Source: Escherichia coli (lineage in GTDB: Bacteria; Pseudomonadota; Gammaproteobacteria; Enterobacterales; Enterobacteriaceae). Taken from it: a DNA stretch of 64,000 nucleotides. This document shows positions 42,802-60,064 of this stretch, piece by piece. The translations under genes were made by a program, and so were the position numbers. The number at the start of each line of letters is the position of its first letter. Position 1 is the stretch's first letter. Under the pieces are notes generated by a model. The model worked only from the letters and a program-made list of their open reading frames with translations, did not search any database and was not told where the DNA came from. The stretch is taken from the NCBI RefSeq assembly GCF_003790525.1, contig NZ_CP033635.1, one strand, 5' to 3'.

Positions 42802-44379
42802 ATGACGGAAAACATTCATAAGCATAGCATCCTCATTCTGGACTTCGGTTCCCAGTATACTCAACTGGTTGCGCGCCGCGTGCGTGAGCTGGGCGTTTAC
42901 TGCGAACTGTGGGCGTGGGATGTGACAGAAGCACAAATTCGTGACTTCAATCCAAGCGGCATTATTCTTTCCGGCGGCCCGGAAAGCACCACCGAAGAAA
43001 ACAGCCCGCGTGCGCCGCAGTATGTCTTTGAAGCAGGCGTACCGGTATTCGGCGTTTGCTATGGCATGCAGACCATGGCGATGCAGTTGGGTGGTCACGT
43101 TGAAGCCTCTAACGAACGTGAATTTGGCTACGCGCAGGTTGAAGTCGTAAACGACAGCGCACTAGTTCGCGGTATCGAAGATGCGCTGACCGCAGACGGT
43201 AAACCTCTGCTCGATGTCTGGATGAGCCACGGCGATAAAGTTACCGCTATCCCGTCCGACTTCGTCACCGTAGCCAGCACCGAAAGCTGCCCGTTTGCCA
43301 TTATGGCTAACGAAGAAAAACGCTTCTATGGCGTACAGTTCCACCCGGAAGTGACTCACACCCGCCAGGGTATGCGCATGCTGGAGCGTTTTGTGCGTGA
43401 TATCTGCCAGTGTGAAGCCCTGTGGACGCCAGCGAAAATTATCGACGATGCTGTAGCCCGTATCCGCGAGCAGGTAGGCGACGATAAAGTCATCCTCGGC
43501 CTCTCTGGTGGCGTGGATTCCTCCGTGACCGCAATGCTGCTGCACCGCGCTATCGGTAAAAATCTGACTTGCGTATTCGTCGATAACGGCCTGCTGCGTC
43601 TCAACGAAGCAGAGCAGGTTCTGGATATGTTTGGCGATCACTTTGGTCTGAACATTGTTCACGTTCCGGCAGAAGATCGCTTCCTGTCAGCGTTGGCCGG
43701 CGAAAACGATCCGGAAGCAAAACGTAAAATCATCGGGCGCGTTTTCGTTGAAGTATTCGATGAAGAAGCACTGAAACTGGAAGACGTGAAGTGGCTGGCG
43801 CAGGGCACTATCTACCCTGACGTTATTGAATCTGCCGCATCTGCAACCGGTAAAGCACACGTCATCAAATCTCACCACAACGTGGGCGGCCTGCCGAAAG
43901 AGATGAAGATGGGCCTGGTTGAACCGCTGAAAGAGCTGTTCAAAGACGAAGTGCGTAAGATTGGTCTGGAGCTGGGCCTGCCGTACGACATGCTGTACCG
44001 TCACCCGTTCCCGGGACCAGGCCTTGGCGTTCGTGTTCTGGGTGAAGTGAAGAAAGAGTATTGTGACCTGCTGCGCCGTGCTGACGCCATCTTCATTGAA
44101 GAACTGCGTAAAGCGGACCTGTACGACAAAGTCAGCCAGGCGTTCACCGTCTTCCTGCCGGTACGTTCCGTTGGCGTAATGGGCGATGGTCGTAAGTATG
44201 ACTGGGTTGTCTCTCTGCGTGCTGTCGAAACCATCGACTTTATGACCGCACACTGGGCGCATCTGCCGTACGATTTCCTCGGTCGCGTTTCCAACCGCAT
44301 TATCAATGAAGTGAACGGTATTTCCCGCGTGGTGTATGACATCAGCGGCAAGCCGCCAGCTACCATTGAGTGGGAATGA
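42802..44379 (+). CDS. guaA: GMP synthase
   Basis: 525-aa [38 protein letters not shown]. Confidence 0.95.
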
Positions 44380-44571: not shown

Positions 44572-45822
44572 GTGCTTACCGATACAAAATTAAAGAACCT
44601 CAAGCCACAGGACAAACTGTACAAAGTTTCCGATCGTGACGGGCTGTATGTAGCTGTGCTTACGTCAGGTACGGTCTCGTTTCGCTATGACTACCGTATC
44701 AACGGTCGCCGCGAAACACTGGTAATCGGGCAGTATGGGCGTGACGGTATCAGCCTGGCAGAAGCGCGAGAAGAACTGATTGCTGCAAAGAAGCTGCTTA
44801 AAGCAGGCCAGTCGCCGGCTGCGGCTAAACGTGACGGTATCAAAAAGATTCGTGGTGCCGAGACGTTTGCGGTACATACCGACAGTTATATGAAACACGT
44901 CATCCTGGCTGAAAGTACCCGCGCAATGAAGCAGGCAGTGATCGACCGTGACATACTTCCTGTTCTTGGCAACAAAATGATGACTGAAATTACCACATCG
45001 ATGGTTCGTGATTTGTGTGACCGGATTGTCGAACGCGGTGGTCGGGCAACAGCAGTACAGGCCAGGGAGATCATTAGCAGCGTATACCGTCACGCCAATG
45101 ACCGTGGTCATGGTTTGTTTAATCCTGCGGCTGACATTAAACCTTCGTCTATCGCCATATTTAAACCACGAGAGCGAACACTGACACCAGAAGAAATTGG
45201 TCTGTTCTTCCGCACGCTGGATGCCATTGGTGCTATGGGCACTATGAAAATGGCTTTAAAGCTGGTGCTTATCACTATGGTTCGTAAAGGCGAATTCACC
45301 AATGCAACGTGGGACGAAATAGATTTTAAAAAATGGACATGGACAATTCCTTCAGACCGCATGAAGGGAAGCCGGGCGCACGTTATTTACCTGCCAAAAC
45401 AGGCACAGGATATATTGGTTGGGTTGCAGATGTGCGCTGGTGGAAGTGAATATCTGGTTCCTGGTCGTTACAATTTCCGGAAGCCATTATCTAATGCCGC
45501 ACTGAACTCTCTGATCGACAGAACGGTGAAAATAATAAATGAAGATGGTGAGCATATTCAGGGCTTCACCGTACACGATATGCGCCGTACAGCCAGTACG
45601 TTGTTGCATGAGGCTGGTTATCCTTCAGACTGGATTGAAAAGGCTCTGGCACATGAGCAGAAAGGTGTGCGCGCCGTATATAACAAAGCGGAATACGCCA
45701 GACAGCGCGCCTACATGTTGCAGCAGTGGGCCGATATGATTGATTCCTGGATTAACGGGGAGCATACGGATCTAATTCCGTTCTCCCCGTCGAAGTTTGA
45801 GAAGTGGATGGCGGGGGAATAA
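44572..45822 (+). CDS. Tyrosine-type phage integrase (P4-like family)
   Basis: 416-aa ORF MLTDTKLKNLKPQDKLYKVSDRDGLYVAV..., C-terminal HDMRRTASTLL and catalytic-region motifs; GTG start. Confidence 0.85.
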   Translation: MLTDTKLKNLKPQDKLYKVSDRDGLYVAVLTSGTVSFRYDYRINGRRETLVIGQYGRDGISLAEAREELIAAKKLLKAGQSPAAAKRDGIKKIRGAETFAVHTDSYMKHVILAESTRAMKQAVIDRDILPVLGNKMMTEITTSMVRDLCDRIVERGGRATAVQAREIISSVYRHANDRGHGLFNPAADIKPSSIAIFKPRERTLTPEEIGLFFRTLDAIGAMGTMKMALKLVLITMVRKGEFTNATWDEIDFKKWTWTIPSDRMKGSRAHVIYLPKQAQDILVGLQMCAGGSEYLVPGRYNFRKPLSNAALNSLIDRTVKIINEDGEHIQGFTVHDMRRTASTLLHEAGYPSDWIEKALAHEQKGVRAVYNKAEYARQRAYMLQQWADMIDSWINGEHTDLIPFSPSKFEKWMAGE

Positions 45823-45825
45823 CGT

Positions 45826-46020
45826 TTAATAGTTCTGCTGATTTTCTTCCATCTCTGCTTCTGCTGCCAGTGATTCAATTTTGTTTTCGAATATTGCTGA
45901 CAGTGTTGCAAATTCAGCATCAGTGACAGCGGGAATTGGAACAAACCTGATCCCGCTGTGTGCAAGCATGTTTGCAGTTTCAAGGCATTTTCTTAAATCT
46001 GCTGGTGATGCCCTGTTCAT
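45826..46020 (-). CDS. Hypothetical small acidic protein
   Basis: Internal Met of ORF 45826..46140 positioned right after methylase stop; weak support. Confidence 0.2.
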   Translation of the reverse strand: MNRASPADLRKCLETANMLAHSGIRFVPIPAVTDAEFATLSAIFENKIESLAAEAEMEENQQNY

Positions 46021-46679
46021 GCAGCACGCTCCCGCCCCTGGTTGTCTGTTGGTGACAGCGGAGAATTGCTGAATGCATTTGTTAATCCGCCAATATCCAA
46101 CGCGTATCCAGGGTGTAGTTGCACTGCCGAGTTTTCGCACTGATTACCCCAAACATCGAAGCCATGAGACGACTGGCGGGCGAACAGTTCAATGCGAGAA
46201 ACATCGCCTAACAATTGCACAAGTTTTTCACGAACGACATCTGGTTTTCTTGAGTGCTCAAGCCGCGGTGCGGTAAATGACTGAACGATCCCTGCATTAA
46301 TGCGCGGAGGTAGTTTTCCCTTTACCGCAAACAGGCAATCTTCACTATTGGCGCGGGTCATGTGTCCCATACCCATAACCAGTTTATCTGGTTGTCGACT
46401 ACCACATTTTATCCACGTGAAGCCCTTCATGGTCATAAGACGAAATCCCCAGGCTTCAACAACTTTTAGTGCTTCGAGTGGTTGTGTTGGCACCCACCAC
46501 ATGGCCAACAGACAGTTTTCAGCGGCCAAATCCCACACAGGAAGGCGGCAGATATCCAGCACACTCATAACTGGATATTTAAAACCGGCACCGCGATTAC
46601 CATCTGCGGCTTTGTCCCGGTATACCCAGGGTGGATCTGCATAGATTAGTGTGTATTTCTTAGTCATAAACCACCCCAC
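46017..46679 (-). CDS. DNA N6-adenine methyltransferase (MT-A70-like, orphan)
   Basis: 220-aa ORF with DPPW motif (YTLIYADPPWVYR); no adjacent restriction endonuclease recognised. Confidence 0.7.
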   Translation of the reverse strand: MGWFMTKKYTLIYADPPWVYRDKAADGNRGAGFKYPVMSVLDICRLPVWDLAAENCLLAMWWVPTQPLEALKVVEAWGFRLMTMKGFTWIKCGSRQPDKLVMGMGHMTRANSEDCLFAVKGKLPPRINAGIVQSFTAPRLEHSRKPDVVREKLVQLLGDVSRIELFARQSSHGFDVWGNQCENSAVQLHPGYALDIGGLTNAFSNSPLSPTDNQGRERAA

Positions 46680-47068
46680 AACATCCTATGCCGCCATAGT
46701 CGCCACGGCGAAGGCCGTTACCTTTTGTGATACATTGGTCCCTGCGAACCGCGATCCTTGCACGCTCAACATCACCAGAAGCAACATCCATACACTGAAG
46801 CCAAAGGTGAGCGGCAATGCGGAACTGCCCTTTTTTCTCTCTTTCAATCGCGCGTTTTTCGATCTCTATCGCCGCAGGAGTAACGGCGACAATCTTTGAC
46901 GGACTGCGCATTGAAACCTTGTTCATGTGATATTTTTCAAGTCGGCTTAACTTTCTCACTTAATCCAACCCTCTCTGAAAATTAATGCCAGCAGATAAAG
47001 CCATGCTGAAACAGAGGCCAGGAATAAGTACCATCCTGACCATTTGCTCCAGTGCCTTAGCAGCACAC

Positions 47069-47317
47069 TCATGCAGCGTTGCTCACAGGACGATATACAC
47101 GTTGCTGAACAGGAGGCTTTTTACCCTGGAACTCTGCCGGGCTTGCTGCCTGACGTTCATCAAGCCAACGCTCAACTTCATCACGGTTCCATGCGCAGCG
47201 TTTATCGGTGATATACCAGCGTTTAGGAAATTCCCCTGCGCGCTCCATACGGTCGATAGTGCTCCATGACAGTGGCACCACCGCCAGGAGTTCCTTCTTA
47301 CCTAATGCACCTTTCAT
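47069..47317 (-). CDS. AlpA-family phage regulator / excisionase-like
   Basis: 82-aa ORF with ...STIDRMERAGEFPKRWYITDKRCAWNRDEVERWL... Confidence 0.55.
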   Translation of the reverse strand: MKGALGKKELLAVVPLSWSTIDRMERAGEFPKRWYITDKRCAWNRDEVERWLDERQAASPAEFQGKKPPVQQRVYRPVSNAA

Positions 47318-47366: not shown

Positions 47367-48248
47367 TTACATAGATGTTTCGTTTAATTCTTCCCGACGA
47401 ACGCTGTAAACGTCGGTGGCTTTTGCCAGCAGTTCGTCATCATCTGAAAGTTTTTGTGCAATGTATTTGTAAGCCTTATCCAGTTCGGAGACAGTGCTGT
47501 AATTCATCGCTGCGCTGGTAAAGGCCATCAGCATTTCTTCTGGCTCACGGCTATCCGCTTTACGCGTTTGCTCATCAGGCTTTTTCACTGATTTAGCGTT
47601 GATCAGACTGTTCATTCCCGCAGCCGTAGTCATTTGCGGAGTAATGTCTCGCTCAACGCGCGGTGCCGTTTCCTGTAATTCGTCAGGGGTGTAAACACCG
47701 AGAAGTACATCAGGAGCGTGCAGGCGAGCCCATCGTTTCGTGCAAAGATATGCAAGTTGCTGGCGCGGATCCTGTTCCCACAATGGAGAGTTACGCACTC
47801 CTGCTTGCGCCATACTGATGGTAAGCTCACGTGGTTCTGCTTCTCCTTTAAGAACTGCTGACACAGTTACCGTCAGATTCGGTGATTTATCTGTTTTGCC
47901 GTTAACATTCGACCAGTCACCGCTCCAGCGATAATTCAGGCGTGTCGCCAGCAGGCTGGAAGAGGATACGACCGCGTTTACCAACTGTGCTTCGTAGCCT
48001 AACGTTCCGTTTACCACATGCGTTTTCTGCGCCACGGCGAAAGGGTTCATTCCCCACTGTGCCGCCTGCATGGTCACCGCCAGGCAATCGGCAGGTTTGC
48101 CTTCAAGATGTTTCGGTACAGTCGCTTTGCTTTGTGACATCAACTCCGCGAAACGCACCAGTTGATTCATACCCTCGGGGCTGAAGATTGCAGCAGCAGT
48201 GCCTACAGTTGCGCCTGGTTGTGATGTGATTGCGATATCATTGCTCAT
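47367..48248 (-). CDS. Single-strand annealing protein (Bet/RecT-like)
   Basis: 293-aa ORF with QAAQWGMNPF segment resembling lambda Bet; directly downstream of exonuclease-like gene. Confidence 0.5.
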   Translation of the reverse strand: MSNDIAITSQPGATVGTAAAIFSPEGMNQLVRFAELMSQSKATVPKHLEGKPADCLAVTMQAAQWGMNPFAVAQKTHVVNGTLGYEAQLVNAVVSSSSLLATRLNYRWSGDWSNVNGKTDKSPNLTVTVSAVLKGEAEPRELTISMAQAGVRNSPLWEQDPRQQLAYLCTKRWARLHAPDVLLGVYTPDELQETAPRVERDITPQMTTAAGMNSLINAKSVKKPDEQTRKADSREPEEMLMAFTSAAMNYSTVSELDKAYKYIAQKLSDDDELLAKATDVYSVRREELNETSM

Positions 48249-49066
48249 ACGTACATATCCTGTTTACGTGCCCAGTCAGGGCGTTTAATAATTTCCACTC
48301 CGCCCCATTCATCGTTGATGCGGCATTCGTGATAGGTATTCAGATCCCGGCGGAACAGAGCGTGCCCGGCATCGACATCCTGCGCATCCAGCTCGAACAC
48401 GCGTACCGGATACCGACCACAATCAATGCTTTCGCTCACGGCAAGAAAGAAAAAACCATGCGGCTGACCAGTAACCATCATTGCGCCTTCGCGGTACATT
48501 GCGTCCTGCACGTGGTAGCGGAATTCCTCGATGTGGCGTGCAAAACGGTCCATATCTGCAACCTTTTTCACGTCGACGATCACGTTGTGCTCGTTCAGCC
48601 ATTTGTCTGGACGAATTCGGCACAACTCCCCCGTCTCTTCATCGTTCCAGTACATTGATGCTTCGCAGTAACCAGGTGCTTCCAGCATCCAGCGTGCCGC
48701 CGGGTGAGCCATTGCGCTATCACGCATCAGCTCCAGTTTCCGCCACTGCTCGGCATCAAGTACCGTAATCCCCATATCCGCCACATCACGAAGAAATTCC
48801 TCTTCGTCAGCTTTACCTTGTTTCGTCCGACGATCGAATTTCGGTGAAACAATGAAGCGTTTGTCGAACTCTCCAGGCTCCAGAAGCAGACAGTGCAATG
48901 CGGTTCCCATATCCAGTGCAGACTTTTTCTCTTCGTCTTCTGGTGCTGCCTGAACCCATTTAAGAAGCGCCGGATTCTTGGCAACCATGTCCAGTTGCGA
49001 CTTACTCACGCCGTCACCGGCGTGGTAGTCTTCGTTGCTGATGTCGAAATAAATTCCCGGTTTCAT
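48245..49066 (-). CDS. Putative PD-(D/E)xK recombination exonuclease
   Basis: 273-aa ORF with D...IVDVKKV motif, overlapping start/stop with annealase gene. Confidence 0.5.
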   Translation of the reverse strand: MKPGIYFDISNEDYHAGDGVSKSQLDMVAKNPALLKWVQAAPEDEEKKSALDMGTALHCLLLEPGEFDKRFIVSPKFDRRTKQGKADEEEFLRDVADMGITVLDAEQWRKLELMRDSAMAHPAARWMLEAPGYCEASMYWNDEETGELCRIRPDKWLNEHNVIVDVKKVADMDRFARHIEEFRYHVQDAMYREGAMMVTGQPHGFFFLAVSESIDCGRYPVRVFELDAQDVDAGHALFRRDLNTYHECRINDEWGGVEIIKRPDWARKQDMYV

Positions 49067-49526: not shown

Positions 49527-49603
49527 CCTCGGTCTGTTACCGTTGAGGTAATAATTATGCGTATATGGTTTGATGTCAATAGATATGAGTTAAAAAAATT
49601 ACC
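49527..49603. promoter_or_regulatory. OL-like operator pair (two perfect TTACC-N5-GGTAA palindromes)
   Basis: TTACCgttgaGGTAA at 49527-49541 and TTACCcgttaGGTAA at 49589-49603, between leftward early operon and repressor gene. Confidence 0.5.
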
Positions 49604-49670
49604 CGTTAGGTAATCGAATAGGCAATAAAAAAGCCGCCATAAGGCGGCTTACTTACTGAAAAATATGGTT

Positions 49671-50255
49671 TTATTGTTTGTTTTTTTCGTTCTGGTTGAT
49701 GACAAATTCAATGTAACTTTCGATCTTTGCTTTCTCGGTTTCGGGTAACAATGCGTAGCGCGAGCGATCATAGTTGATGGTCGCAGGGTCATGCGGATGA
49801 ATCAGTAGTTCATATCCGTGACGCCCGAATGCAGATGCAACATTCTCCAGGGTGGAAATGGAAACGCTGACCTCATTGTTTAACAGGCGGCTTATTGTCA
49901 CCTGGGCGACGCCGGATGCGCGGTGAAGTTTTCCCTGAGTTGAAAGGTCGCGGCTTTCACTCATCCAGCGTTCCAGGTTGTGAGCCGCCAGCTGACCTAT
50001 ATCACTCGGGCCGACAGGCTGAAAACCCTCCTGAGAAAGCGAGCGATCAATATCAAGCCAGTTACGGGGTTTATTGGCGGCAGCTTCAATTTTTCGCGCA
50101 ACCTGGTCGCCGATAACCTTCTTGCCAAGAGCCCAGCGGTTTACCAGATTTGCCTGAGTTCCAAGTTTTTCTGCCATCCGCGTCTGAACACCATTGAATT
50201 CACGGTCGATCAAGTCGTTGAGATTTTGCCTGCGGACGTCCTGGATACTTTTCAT
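49671..50255 (-). CDS. Prophage repressor (two HTH regions)
   Basis: 194-aa ORF divergent from cro-like gene; HTH-like segments QTRMAEKLGTQANLVNRWALGKK and ASGVAQVTISRLLNNE. Confidence 0.55.
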   Translation of the reverse strand: MKSIQDVRRQNLNDLIDREFNGVQTRMAEKLGTQANLVNRWALGKKVIGDQVARKIEAAANKPRNWLDIDRSLSQEGFQPVGPSDIGQLAAHNLERWMSESRDLSTQGKLHRASGVAQVTISRLLNNEVSVSISTLENVASAFGRHGYELLIHPHDPATINYDRSRYALLPETEKAKIESYIEFVINQNEKNKQ

Positions 50256-59987: not shown

Positions 59988-60064
59988 TGGCGCGGCATGC
60001 AGGATTCGAACCTGCGACCAACCGCTTAGAAGGCGGTTGCTCTGTCCAACTGAGCTAATGCCAC
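59988..60064 (-). tRNA. tRNA-Arg (anticodon UCU), phage-encoded
   Basis: 77-nt cloverleaf folded by hand: acceptor GTGGCAT/ATGCCGC, anticodon loop CTTCTAA, T-loop GCAGG-TTCGAAT-CCTGC, encoded CCA. Confidence 0.85.

Follow-up and report, generated by a model that had tools for sequence, protein, structure and literature searches.

An Orphan MT-A70 Family Methyltransferase in an Epsilon15-Like Prophage of Escherichia coli, a Candidate GATC-Specific DNA Methylase

Described Relatives of the Prophage Enzyme

The role of phage-encoded methyltransferases of the MT-A70 family is a matter of dispute. They have been described as Dam-like methylases that target GATC sites, as in the cases of M.EcoGV and of p32 of the Serratia phage vB_SspM_BZS1, or as ribosomal RNA (rRNA) methyltransferases that control prophage induction, as in the case of gp5 of phage phiPA8 together with its partner PNB-2. 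Here we analyze a gene of this family in a prophage located beside guaA in Escherichia coli (RefSeq assembly GCF_003790525.1, contig NZ_CP033635.1; the stretch of 64,000 nucleotides under study is called the window hereafter, and positions are counted from its first nucleotide). The gene is an ordinary one, being a RefSeq-annotated member of a known family. Its value is that of a natural comparator for the dispute, since its product combines a gp5-type catalytic core with a different tail, and PNB-2 is missing. The available evidence inclines us, with some reserve, toward the view that this product is an active, stand-alone, orphan Dam-like GATC DNA adenine methyltransferase of the phage MT-A70 branch, with early leftward expression.

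The result on the DNA specificity of M.EcoGV is cited here second-hand, its primary source being Fang et al. (2012). In the secondary accounts, M.EcoGV is described as an enzyme from the Shiga toxin (Stx) phage of an O104 strain that is highly similar to phiPA8 gp5 and gives rise to GATC methylation when over-produced, and it is tabulated as GATC-specific, “determined by PacBio.” For gp5 itself, it has been reported that the protein forms a 1:1 complex with the product of the upstream gene, PNB-2, and that the gp5 gene increases spontaneous prophage induction and virulence in a manner that depends on the DPPW motif, the phenotype being lost in a DPPW-to-APPA mutant (Gong, Chakraborty and Koudelka). 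The same authors suggest that the C-terminal tail of gp5, i.e., its last ~27 residues, is needed for PNB-2 binding. In a follow-up preprint, the rRNA function of gp5 was tied to the shielding of ribosomes against Shiga toxin, and the holoenzyme was called unique to Stx2 phages.

GATC specificity has been reported for more distant relatives as well. When BZS1 p32 was produced alone in a dam- E. coli strain, plasmid DNA became resistant to MboI and sensitive to DpnI, demonstrating that this enzyme is GATC-specific, and the same specificity has been described for M.EfaBMDam of Tn1549. The two are classed as prokaryotic MT-A70 or “beta2” enzymes.

Comparison with gp5, M.EcoGV and BZS1 p32

Over residues 1-187, the prophage methylase is 82.9% identical to phiPA8 gp5 (M.EcoPA8orf6770P; E = 8e-124) and 82% identical to the enzyme of the O104:H4 Stx2 phage P13374. 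The latter shares 99.5% identity with gp5 and is taken to be M.EcoGV. Judged by this resemblance, the prophage methylase and the catalytic subunit gp5/M.EcoGV are orthologs. The enzymes share an MTKKY start and the DPPW motif, and their genes lie in the integrase-proximal part of the leftward early region, where they are followed by a homolog of the Orf63/DUF1382 gene. In contrast, the proteins bear no relation to one another in their last 29 residues, the upstream gene is PerC-like and does not code for PNB-2, and the prophage is of the epsilon15/TL-2011b type and is located at guaA, whereas gp5 and M.EcoGV are carried by Stx-converting Oslovirus phages, namely Stx2a phages of O157:H7 and O104:H4. 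Homologs of PNB-2 or PNB-1 were not detected within the window by tblastn (best E = 0.14), and the PerC-like protein is unrelated to PNB-2. Because both the PNB-2 gene and the gp5-type tail are absent, the prophage methylase should not be filed as a gp5-PNB-2 rRNA holoenzyme.

The prophage methylase is 41% identical to BZS1 p32 (E = 1e-49). Both belong to the same Pfam family, and both are encoded near the integrase gene at the end of a leftward operon, with no endonuclease. They differ by a ~23-residue insertion after the TWVK strand, present in p32 and missing here, and by their tails. An ANR-family small regulator-like gene is found directly upstream of that for p32, without detectable similarity to the PerC-like gene of the prophage. 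By analogy with M.EcoGV, BZS1 p32 and M.EfaBMDam, the prophage methylase is most likely specific for GATC. It is probably homodimeric.

Gene Start, Family and Predicted Fold

The earlier note, which was made from the sequence alone, had reported a DPPW-containing, MT-A70-like adenine methyltransferase encoded by an open reading frame (ORF) at 46017-46679. This minus-strand ORF is real and counts 220 residues from its GTG codon in the ORF list, but the GTG at 46679 does not appear to be the start. The ATG at 46667, which yields a protein of 216 residues (MTKKY...), is the likelier one, because RefSeq (PGAP) and all close homologs begin with MTKKY at this position, because it is preceded by a Shine-Dalgarno-like run, GGGGTGG, and because there is an 8-nucleotide overlap with the stop of the preceding gene (ATGACTAA). 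The GTG would add four residues.

The assignment to a family, on the other hand, has held in full. The Pfam MT-A70 model (PF05063) is covered over its whole length (positions 1-172 of 172) with an E value of 1.2e-21 and a score of 77.8 bits, for a cut-off of 23.9, and the DPPW sequence is found at residues 11-14, an N-terminal location that is that of the permuted beta class. In an alignment of 62 family sequences, all the invariant or nearly invariant positions are kept in the prophage methylase, including D11-P12-P13-W14, each of which is at least 90% conserved, K141-P142, and E160/F162/R164. The C-terminal block made of the HS.KP, ELF.R and WGN sequences is also present, with H138, S139, K141, P142, E160, F162, R164 and G174 conserved in the same alignment.

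The AlphaFold2 model has a mean predicted local distance difference test (pLDDT) value of 90.1; residues 1 to ~185 are modelled with confidence, the last ~25 poorly. The best solved matches found by Foldseek are METTL3 and Tetrahymena MTA1 (E ~1e-14), with a template modelling score (TM-score) of ~0.65 for METTL3 and a root-mean-square deviation of 2.3-3.0 Å over ~179 columns for MTA1. A phmmer search of the solved structures also returned MTA1 (E = 5e-13). In PADLOC, the methylase matches the MTase_II model for Type II methyltransferases (E = 1e-77), while a search of NCBIfam assigned no family to it. By its sequence, its motif and its predicted fold, the protein is a member of Pfam MT-A70, and its predicted activity is N6-adenine methyl transfer from S-adenosylmethionine (SAM). 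The wider methylase family numbers 12,268 cluster representatives in the library at E values up to 0.001.

The permuted Rossmann fold and the DPPW active site are common to the prophage enzyme and to the eukaryotic complexes METTL3-METTL14, which produces N6-methyladenine (m6A) in mRNA, and MTA1-MTA9-p1-p2, which produces it in the DNA of ciliates (6mA). The eukaryotic MT-A70 enzymes are ~20-25% identical to it, and they require an inactive paralog and nucleic-acid-binding subunits. The phage protein, unlike them, consists of a core of ~180 residues and a short tail, and no paralog is encoded.

Distribution and Integrity of the Gene

The RefSeq protein WP_086619427.1 (“MT-A70 family methyltransferase,” 216 residues) is found in E. 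coli 702/18, where the surrounding 1.2-kilobase (kb) segment is 100% identical. Of 5426 complete E. coli genomes, 538 (~10%) carry this segment. Integrity was assessed with 80 near-identical viral contigs of IMG/VR. The gene is intact in 79 of them, and the remaining copy (L078, IMGVR_UViG_2703718858_000001) has a premature stop, W73*. Of the codon variants among 51 alleles, 63 are synonymous and 28 nonsynonymous; the ratio of nonsynonymous to synonymous rates is ~0.13, and the gene is under purifying selection. Nearly half of the nonsynonymous positions are in the tail.

Absence of a Restriction Partner

The earlier note had seen no partner endonuclease near the gene, and this is confirmed by the analysis of the leftward operon, among whose nine proteins PADLOC detected no restriction endonuclease and matched the methylase alone. 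The gene for the only neighbour with a nuclease fold, which is located upstream of recT and has no PADLOC match, overlaps recT by 4 nucleotides and is annotated as “exonuclease VIII” in phage TL-2011b; its product is therefore a recombination exonuclease and not a restriction enzyme. In the absence of a cognate endonuclease, the prophage methylase cannot be counted among the restriction-modification systems.

The genes for relatives of ~195 residues are found in diverse locations: some sit between NinB and NinD, others follow DnaB or ParB-HTH genes, and others again follow lysis genes. Neither an endonuclease nor any constant neighbour goes with them, and such a pattern is that of a phage DNA methylase which is mobile and self-sufficient. 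Some longer relatives are fused to a ParB_N DNA-binding domain. Among the distant MT-A70 relatives P0160, P0186 and P0151, some harbor a LAGLIDADG domain between the two halves of the methylase domain, probably as part of an intein, and others are fused to ParB_N.

Other orphan adenine methyltransferases are carried by mobile elements, including M.EcoGII/M.EcoGI, Hia5/Hin1523 and M.EcoGIX, which have been described as silent in the lysogen. None of them was retained as a relative, as they do not belong to MT-A70. M.EcoGII/M.EcoGI are proteins of 349 residues with a DPPY motif and a target-recognition domain, Hia5/Hin1523 are of the alpha class, and M.EcoGIX is a plasmid-borne methylase of single-stranded DNA.

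The C-Terminal Tail and the Adjacent Small Genes

The alignment with gp5 ends at residue 187, beyond which the tails of the two proteins are unrelated, and matches to the methylase across the library end at its residues ~176-190. The confidence of the AlphaFold2 model is low in the tail (block pLDDT of 65 and 49). The tail is nevertheless kept in mosaic relatives with different cores, including P0007 and P0078, with synonymous to nonsynonymous changes of 11:12, 14:8, and 15:6. On this comparative evidence, the tail is real and translated, and it is under moderate constraint.

The PerC-like gene is found directly upstream of the methylase gene in 79 of the 80 close IMG/VR relatives. Homologs of its product are 56-78% identical, the N-terminal 16 residues included. 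The gene probably starts at the GTG at 46959 (99 residues) rather than at the ATG at 46911 proposed by RefSeq/PGAP (83 residues), because the additional sequence, xKLxRLEKYHxNxVS, is conserved in prophages of Salmonella, Enterobacter and Cedecea, and because the PHROG 868 profile has 99 positions. It belongs to the backbone of the epsilon15-like phages. The PerC-like protein was considered as an obligatory partner whose occurrence follows that of the long tail, an idea that was rejected. PerC-like genes also accompany short-tailed methylases, as in E15 and SPN1S, and in the same-tail relatives P0007, P0078 and P0010 one or two genes (DUF1317, PDDEXK_5 or Phage_phiTE_015) are inserted between the PerC-like gene and that of the methylase; thus, tail type and PerC-like gene do not co-vary. 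It is unlikely that the PerC-like protein replaces PNB-2 as a partner.

The slot directly upstream of the methylase gene is a hot spot for insertions. In a prophage of Enterobacter hormaechei (L087), a PDDEXK_5 nuclease-like gene (1998-2525) overlaps the methylase start by 25 nucleotides and could code for a restriction partner in that prophage, and in Salmonella phage SPN1S (L102) the overlap is of 4 nucleotides with the gene for a DGQHR-domain protein (1509-2504). A PerC::MT-A70 fusion of 297 residues (P0001, three member sequences) has a methylase part that is 100% identical to the prophage methylase; it most likely results from a frameshift or a sequencing error at the 8-nucleotide gene overlap.

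On the other side, the ATG of the Orf63/DUF1382 gene overlaps the methylase stop (ATGA). The protein that it encodes is 51% identical to phiPA8 gp4, whose gene occupies the same position. Orf63 of lambda is a pro-lytic dimer encoded in the exo-xis region, and models have it binding a short helical ligand; the molecule name given in PDB entry 8DSB, “Xis (Excision72),” is misleading for Orf63. The case for Orf63/DUF1382 as a constant partner is weakened by the observation that the downstream gene varies in close relatives. In the IMG/VR loci L005-L084 (~3645 onward), the methylase gene is followed by an Orf63/DUF1382 gene, by that of a lambda-type Ser/Thr protein phosphatase, or by other small ORFs. 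Since the tail remains unchanged while the downstream gene varies, a recombination junction lies at the 3' end of the methylase gene.

Proposed Function and Alternatives

If the methylase gene is co-transcribed with the other early genes of the leftward operon, including the recombination genes, the PerC-like gene and the Orf63 homolog, the enzyme would be present mainly after induction or infection. It might then keep the rapidly replicating phage DNA fully methylated at GATC sites when the Dam protein of the host is limiting. A possible benefit would be protection from restriction enzymes that cut GATC and are sensitive to m6A, a narrow effect and not a general anti-restriction function. In that restricted form, the anti-restriction self-methylation proposed in the earlier note may stand; its broader form finds no counterpart in the nearest characterized relatives, which are not motif-adding anti-restriction enzymes. 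The other consequence envisaged there, an altered methylation pattern of the host in the lysogen, probably does not occur, as the GATC relatives target a site that is already methylated by the host Dam. Because a GATC-specific enzyme adds no lysogen-specific motif in dam+ E. coli, the finding of “no new methylated motif” could lead to the wrongful rejection of an active enzyme. For methylome studies, this means that dam+ lysogens do not reveal a prophage methylase specific for GATC and that “no new motif” should not be equated with “inactive.” The observed to expected ratio of GATC sites is 0.68 in the prophage and 0.77 in the host flank, which is not a meaningful difference and supports neither side.

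Several points weigh against a function in GATC methylation. Purified gp5 was near background on dam- DNA in vitro, and its complex with PNB-2 preferred RNA over DNA by more than 13-fold, with specificity for 16S rRNA in 30S subunits; it was also argued that the GATC methylation obtained with over-expressed M.EcoGV could be off-target (Gong, Chakraborty and Koudelka). In addition, a GATC methylase is redundant where the host is dam+, and its selective benefit is one that we infer. The prophage enzyme might thus be an m6A methyltransferase of 16S rRNA, or of another RNA, that works with a different phage-encoded partner and raises spontaneous induction by way of altered ribosomes. The close similarity of its core to that of gp5, whose PNB-2 complex prefers RNA and raises induction, is in line with such a role, as are its translational coupling to small genes on both sides and the fact that all solved relatives, METTL3-METTL14 and MTA1-MTA9-p1-p2, act in hetero-complexes. 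We nevertheless regard it as distinctly unlikely. The window has no homolog of PNB-2 or PNB-1, an unrelated sequence has taken the place of the tail linked to PNB-2, and the one gene in the position of the latter is the PerC-like gene, whose product is not related to PNB-2 and which is a backbone gene with no co-variation with the tail. Furthermore, the holoenzyme is considered unique to Stx2 phages, whereas the backbone here is of the TL-2011b type and no stx gene is present in the matching annotated region. Finally, the claim on 16S rRNA is based on SAM-consumption assays.

Related to this is the idea of the tail as a swappable docking module, to which we give little credence. In Stx phages the module would recruit PNB-2 and the enzyme would thereby be redirected to 16S rRNA, while in the prophage it would recruit another small phage protein, RNA or some other non-GATC substrate being methylated to tune prophage induction. 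The translationally coupled Orf63-like dimer and the PerC-like protein may be considered as candidate partners of the tail. If this idea were true, the exchange of a tail together with its partner would represent a general substrate switch for phage MT-A70 enzymes.

The reading of the earlier note, namely a DNA adenine methyltransferase of non-GATC or relaxed specificity that provides broad protection from restriction and adds a new motif in the lysogen, is unlikely as well. It agrees with the orphan status of the enzyme and with its minimal catalytic core, which has no recognizable target-recognition domain, and the substrate loop (residues ~86-103) differs from that of gp5 at several positions, in a region where the family is mosaic. 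However, all the members of the family for which a DNA specificity has been reported are specific for GATC, even though their loops are very different, and at 82-83% identity to M.EcoGV and gp5 one would not expect the specificity to have changed. Prophage methylases devoid of specificity do exist, such as M.EcoGII and Hia5, but these two and M.EcoGI are of different families, and their behaviour is not transferable. That the gene is an inactive or decaying passenger is highly improbable, even though gp5 alone is almost inactive in vitro, a premature stop at W73 occurs in one viral contig, and M.EcoGV is described as only weakly expressed in its own host. Indeed, the conserved catalytic positions are all intact, as are nearly all close copies of the gene, the low ratio of nonsynonymous to synonymous rates and the many related clusters in the library are not those of a decaying gene, and the loss of phenotype of the APPA mutant of gp5 shows that a close relative is functional. 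A GATC-specific DNA methylase thus remains the reading that we favor.

Prophage Setting

The prophage is of the epsilon15/TL-2011b type, its backbone being that of phage TL-2011b and of the Uetakevirus group, which is epsilon15-like. The guaA gene of the host ends at 44379, and the features found beyond it are listed in Table 1. The methyltransferase gene is the second-to-last of a minus-strand string that follows the cI-like repressor gene and a promoter-like site; the order after that site is two small ORFs, exonuclease, RecT, AlpA-like, PerC-like, methyltransferase and DUF1382. This arrangement agrees with the phage-borne, early-left location given in the earlier note. The term “early-left operon” is a reasonable one by analogy with lambda, the promoter being a consensus match only.

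Table 1. Coordinates in the window of the methyltransferase gene, its parts and the surrounding prophage features.
Feature	Coordinates	Strand	Basis and remarks
MT-A70 family N6-adenine methyltransferase, coding sequence	46017..46667	-	216 residues from ATG; Pfam, RefSeq, AlphaFold2, Foldseek
Catalytic motif IV DPPW, residues 11-14	46626..46637	-	GAT CCA CCC TGG, read from sequence
Lineage-specific C-terminal tail, residues 188-216 (...GYALDIGGLTNAFSNSPLSPTDNQGRERAA)	46020..46106	-	Sequence comparison
Prophage tyrosine integrase	44572..45822	+	Pfam Arm-DNA-bind_3, Phage_int_M, Phage_integrase; RefSeq; convergent with operon
DUF1382 (lambda Orf63 homolog)	45826..46020	-	Pfam DUF1382 E = 7.7e-30; PDB 8DSB E = 8.5e-13
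PerC-family small “transcriptional activator” gene	46660..46959	-	Pfam PerC E = 8.4e-07; PHROG 868 E = 5.9e-51, profile positions 17-99 of 99
AlpA-like helix-turn-helix (excisionase/regulator-type) gene	47069..47317	-	Pfam Phage_AlpA E = 3.1e-05
RecT-family annealing protein	47367..48248	-	Pfam RecT E = 1.4e-31
PD-(D/E)XK exonuclease, RecT partner	48245..49066	-	Pfam DUF3799 E = 1.1e-22
Promoter-like TTGACA-17-AATTAT site	49551..49579	-	Consensus match only; candidate start of leftward early operon
Terminator-like hairpin after repressor gene	49631..49650	-	Consensus scan; function inferred
cI-like helix-turn-helix repressor gene	49671..50255	-	ORF; RefSeq “helix-turn-helix domain-containing protein” in matching genome

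A consensus scan, which is weak evidence, found no internal promoter or terminator on the minus strand between the AlpA-like and PerC-like genes; phiPA8 has one upstream of gp6. In phage SPN1S, the AlpA-like gene is annotated as “excisionase and transcriptional regulator.” The genome of E. coli 702/18 matches the window almost perfectly from ~25.8 to ~53.6 kb, after which the two fall out of register through an indel of ~1.2 kb in the ead/Ea22-DUF551 region. A tRNA-Arg gene (anticodon TCT) is located inside the prophage on the minus strand (59988-60064), near the terminase and portal genes.

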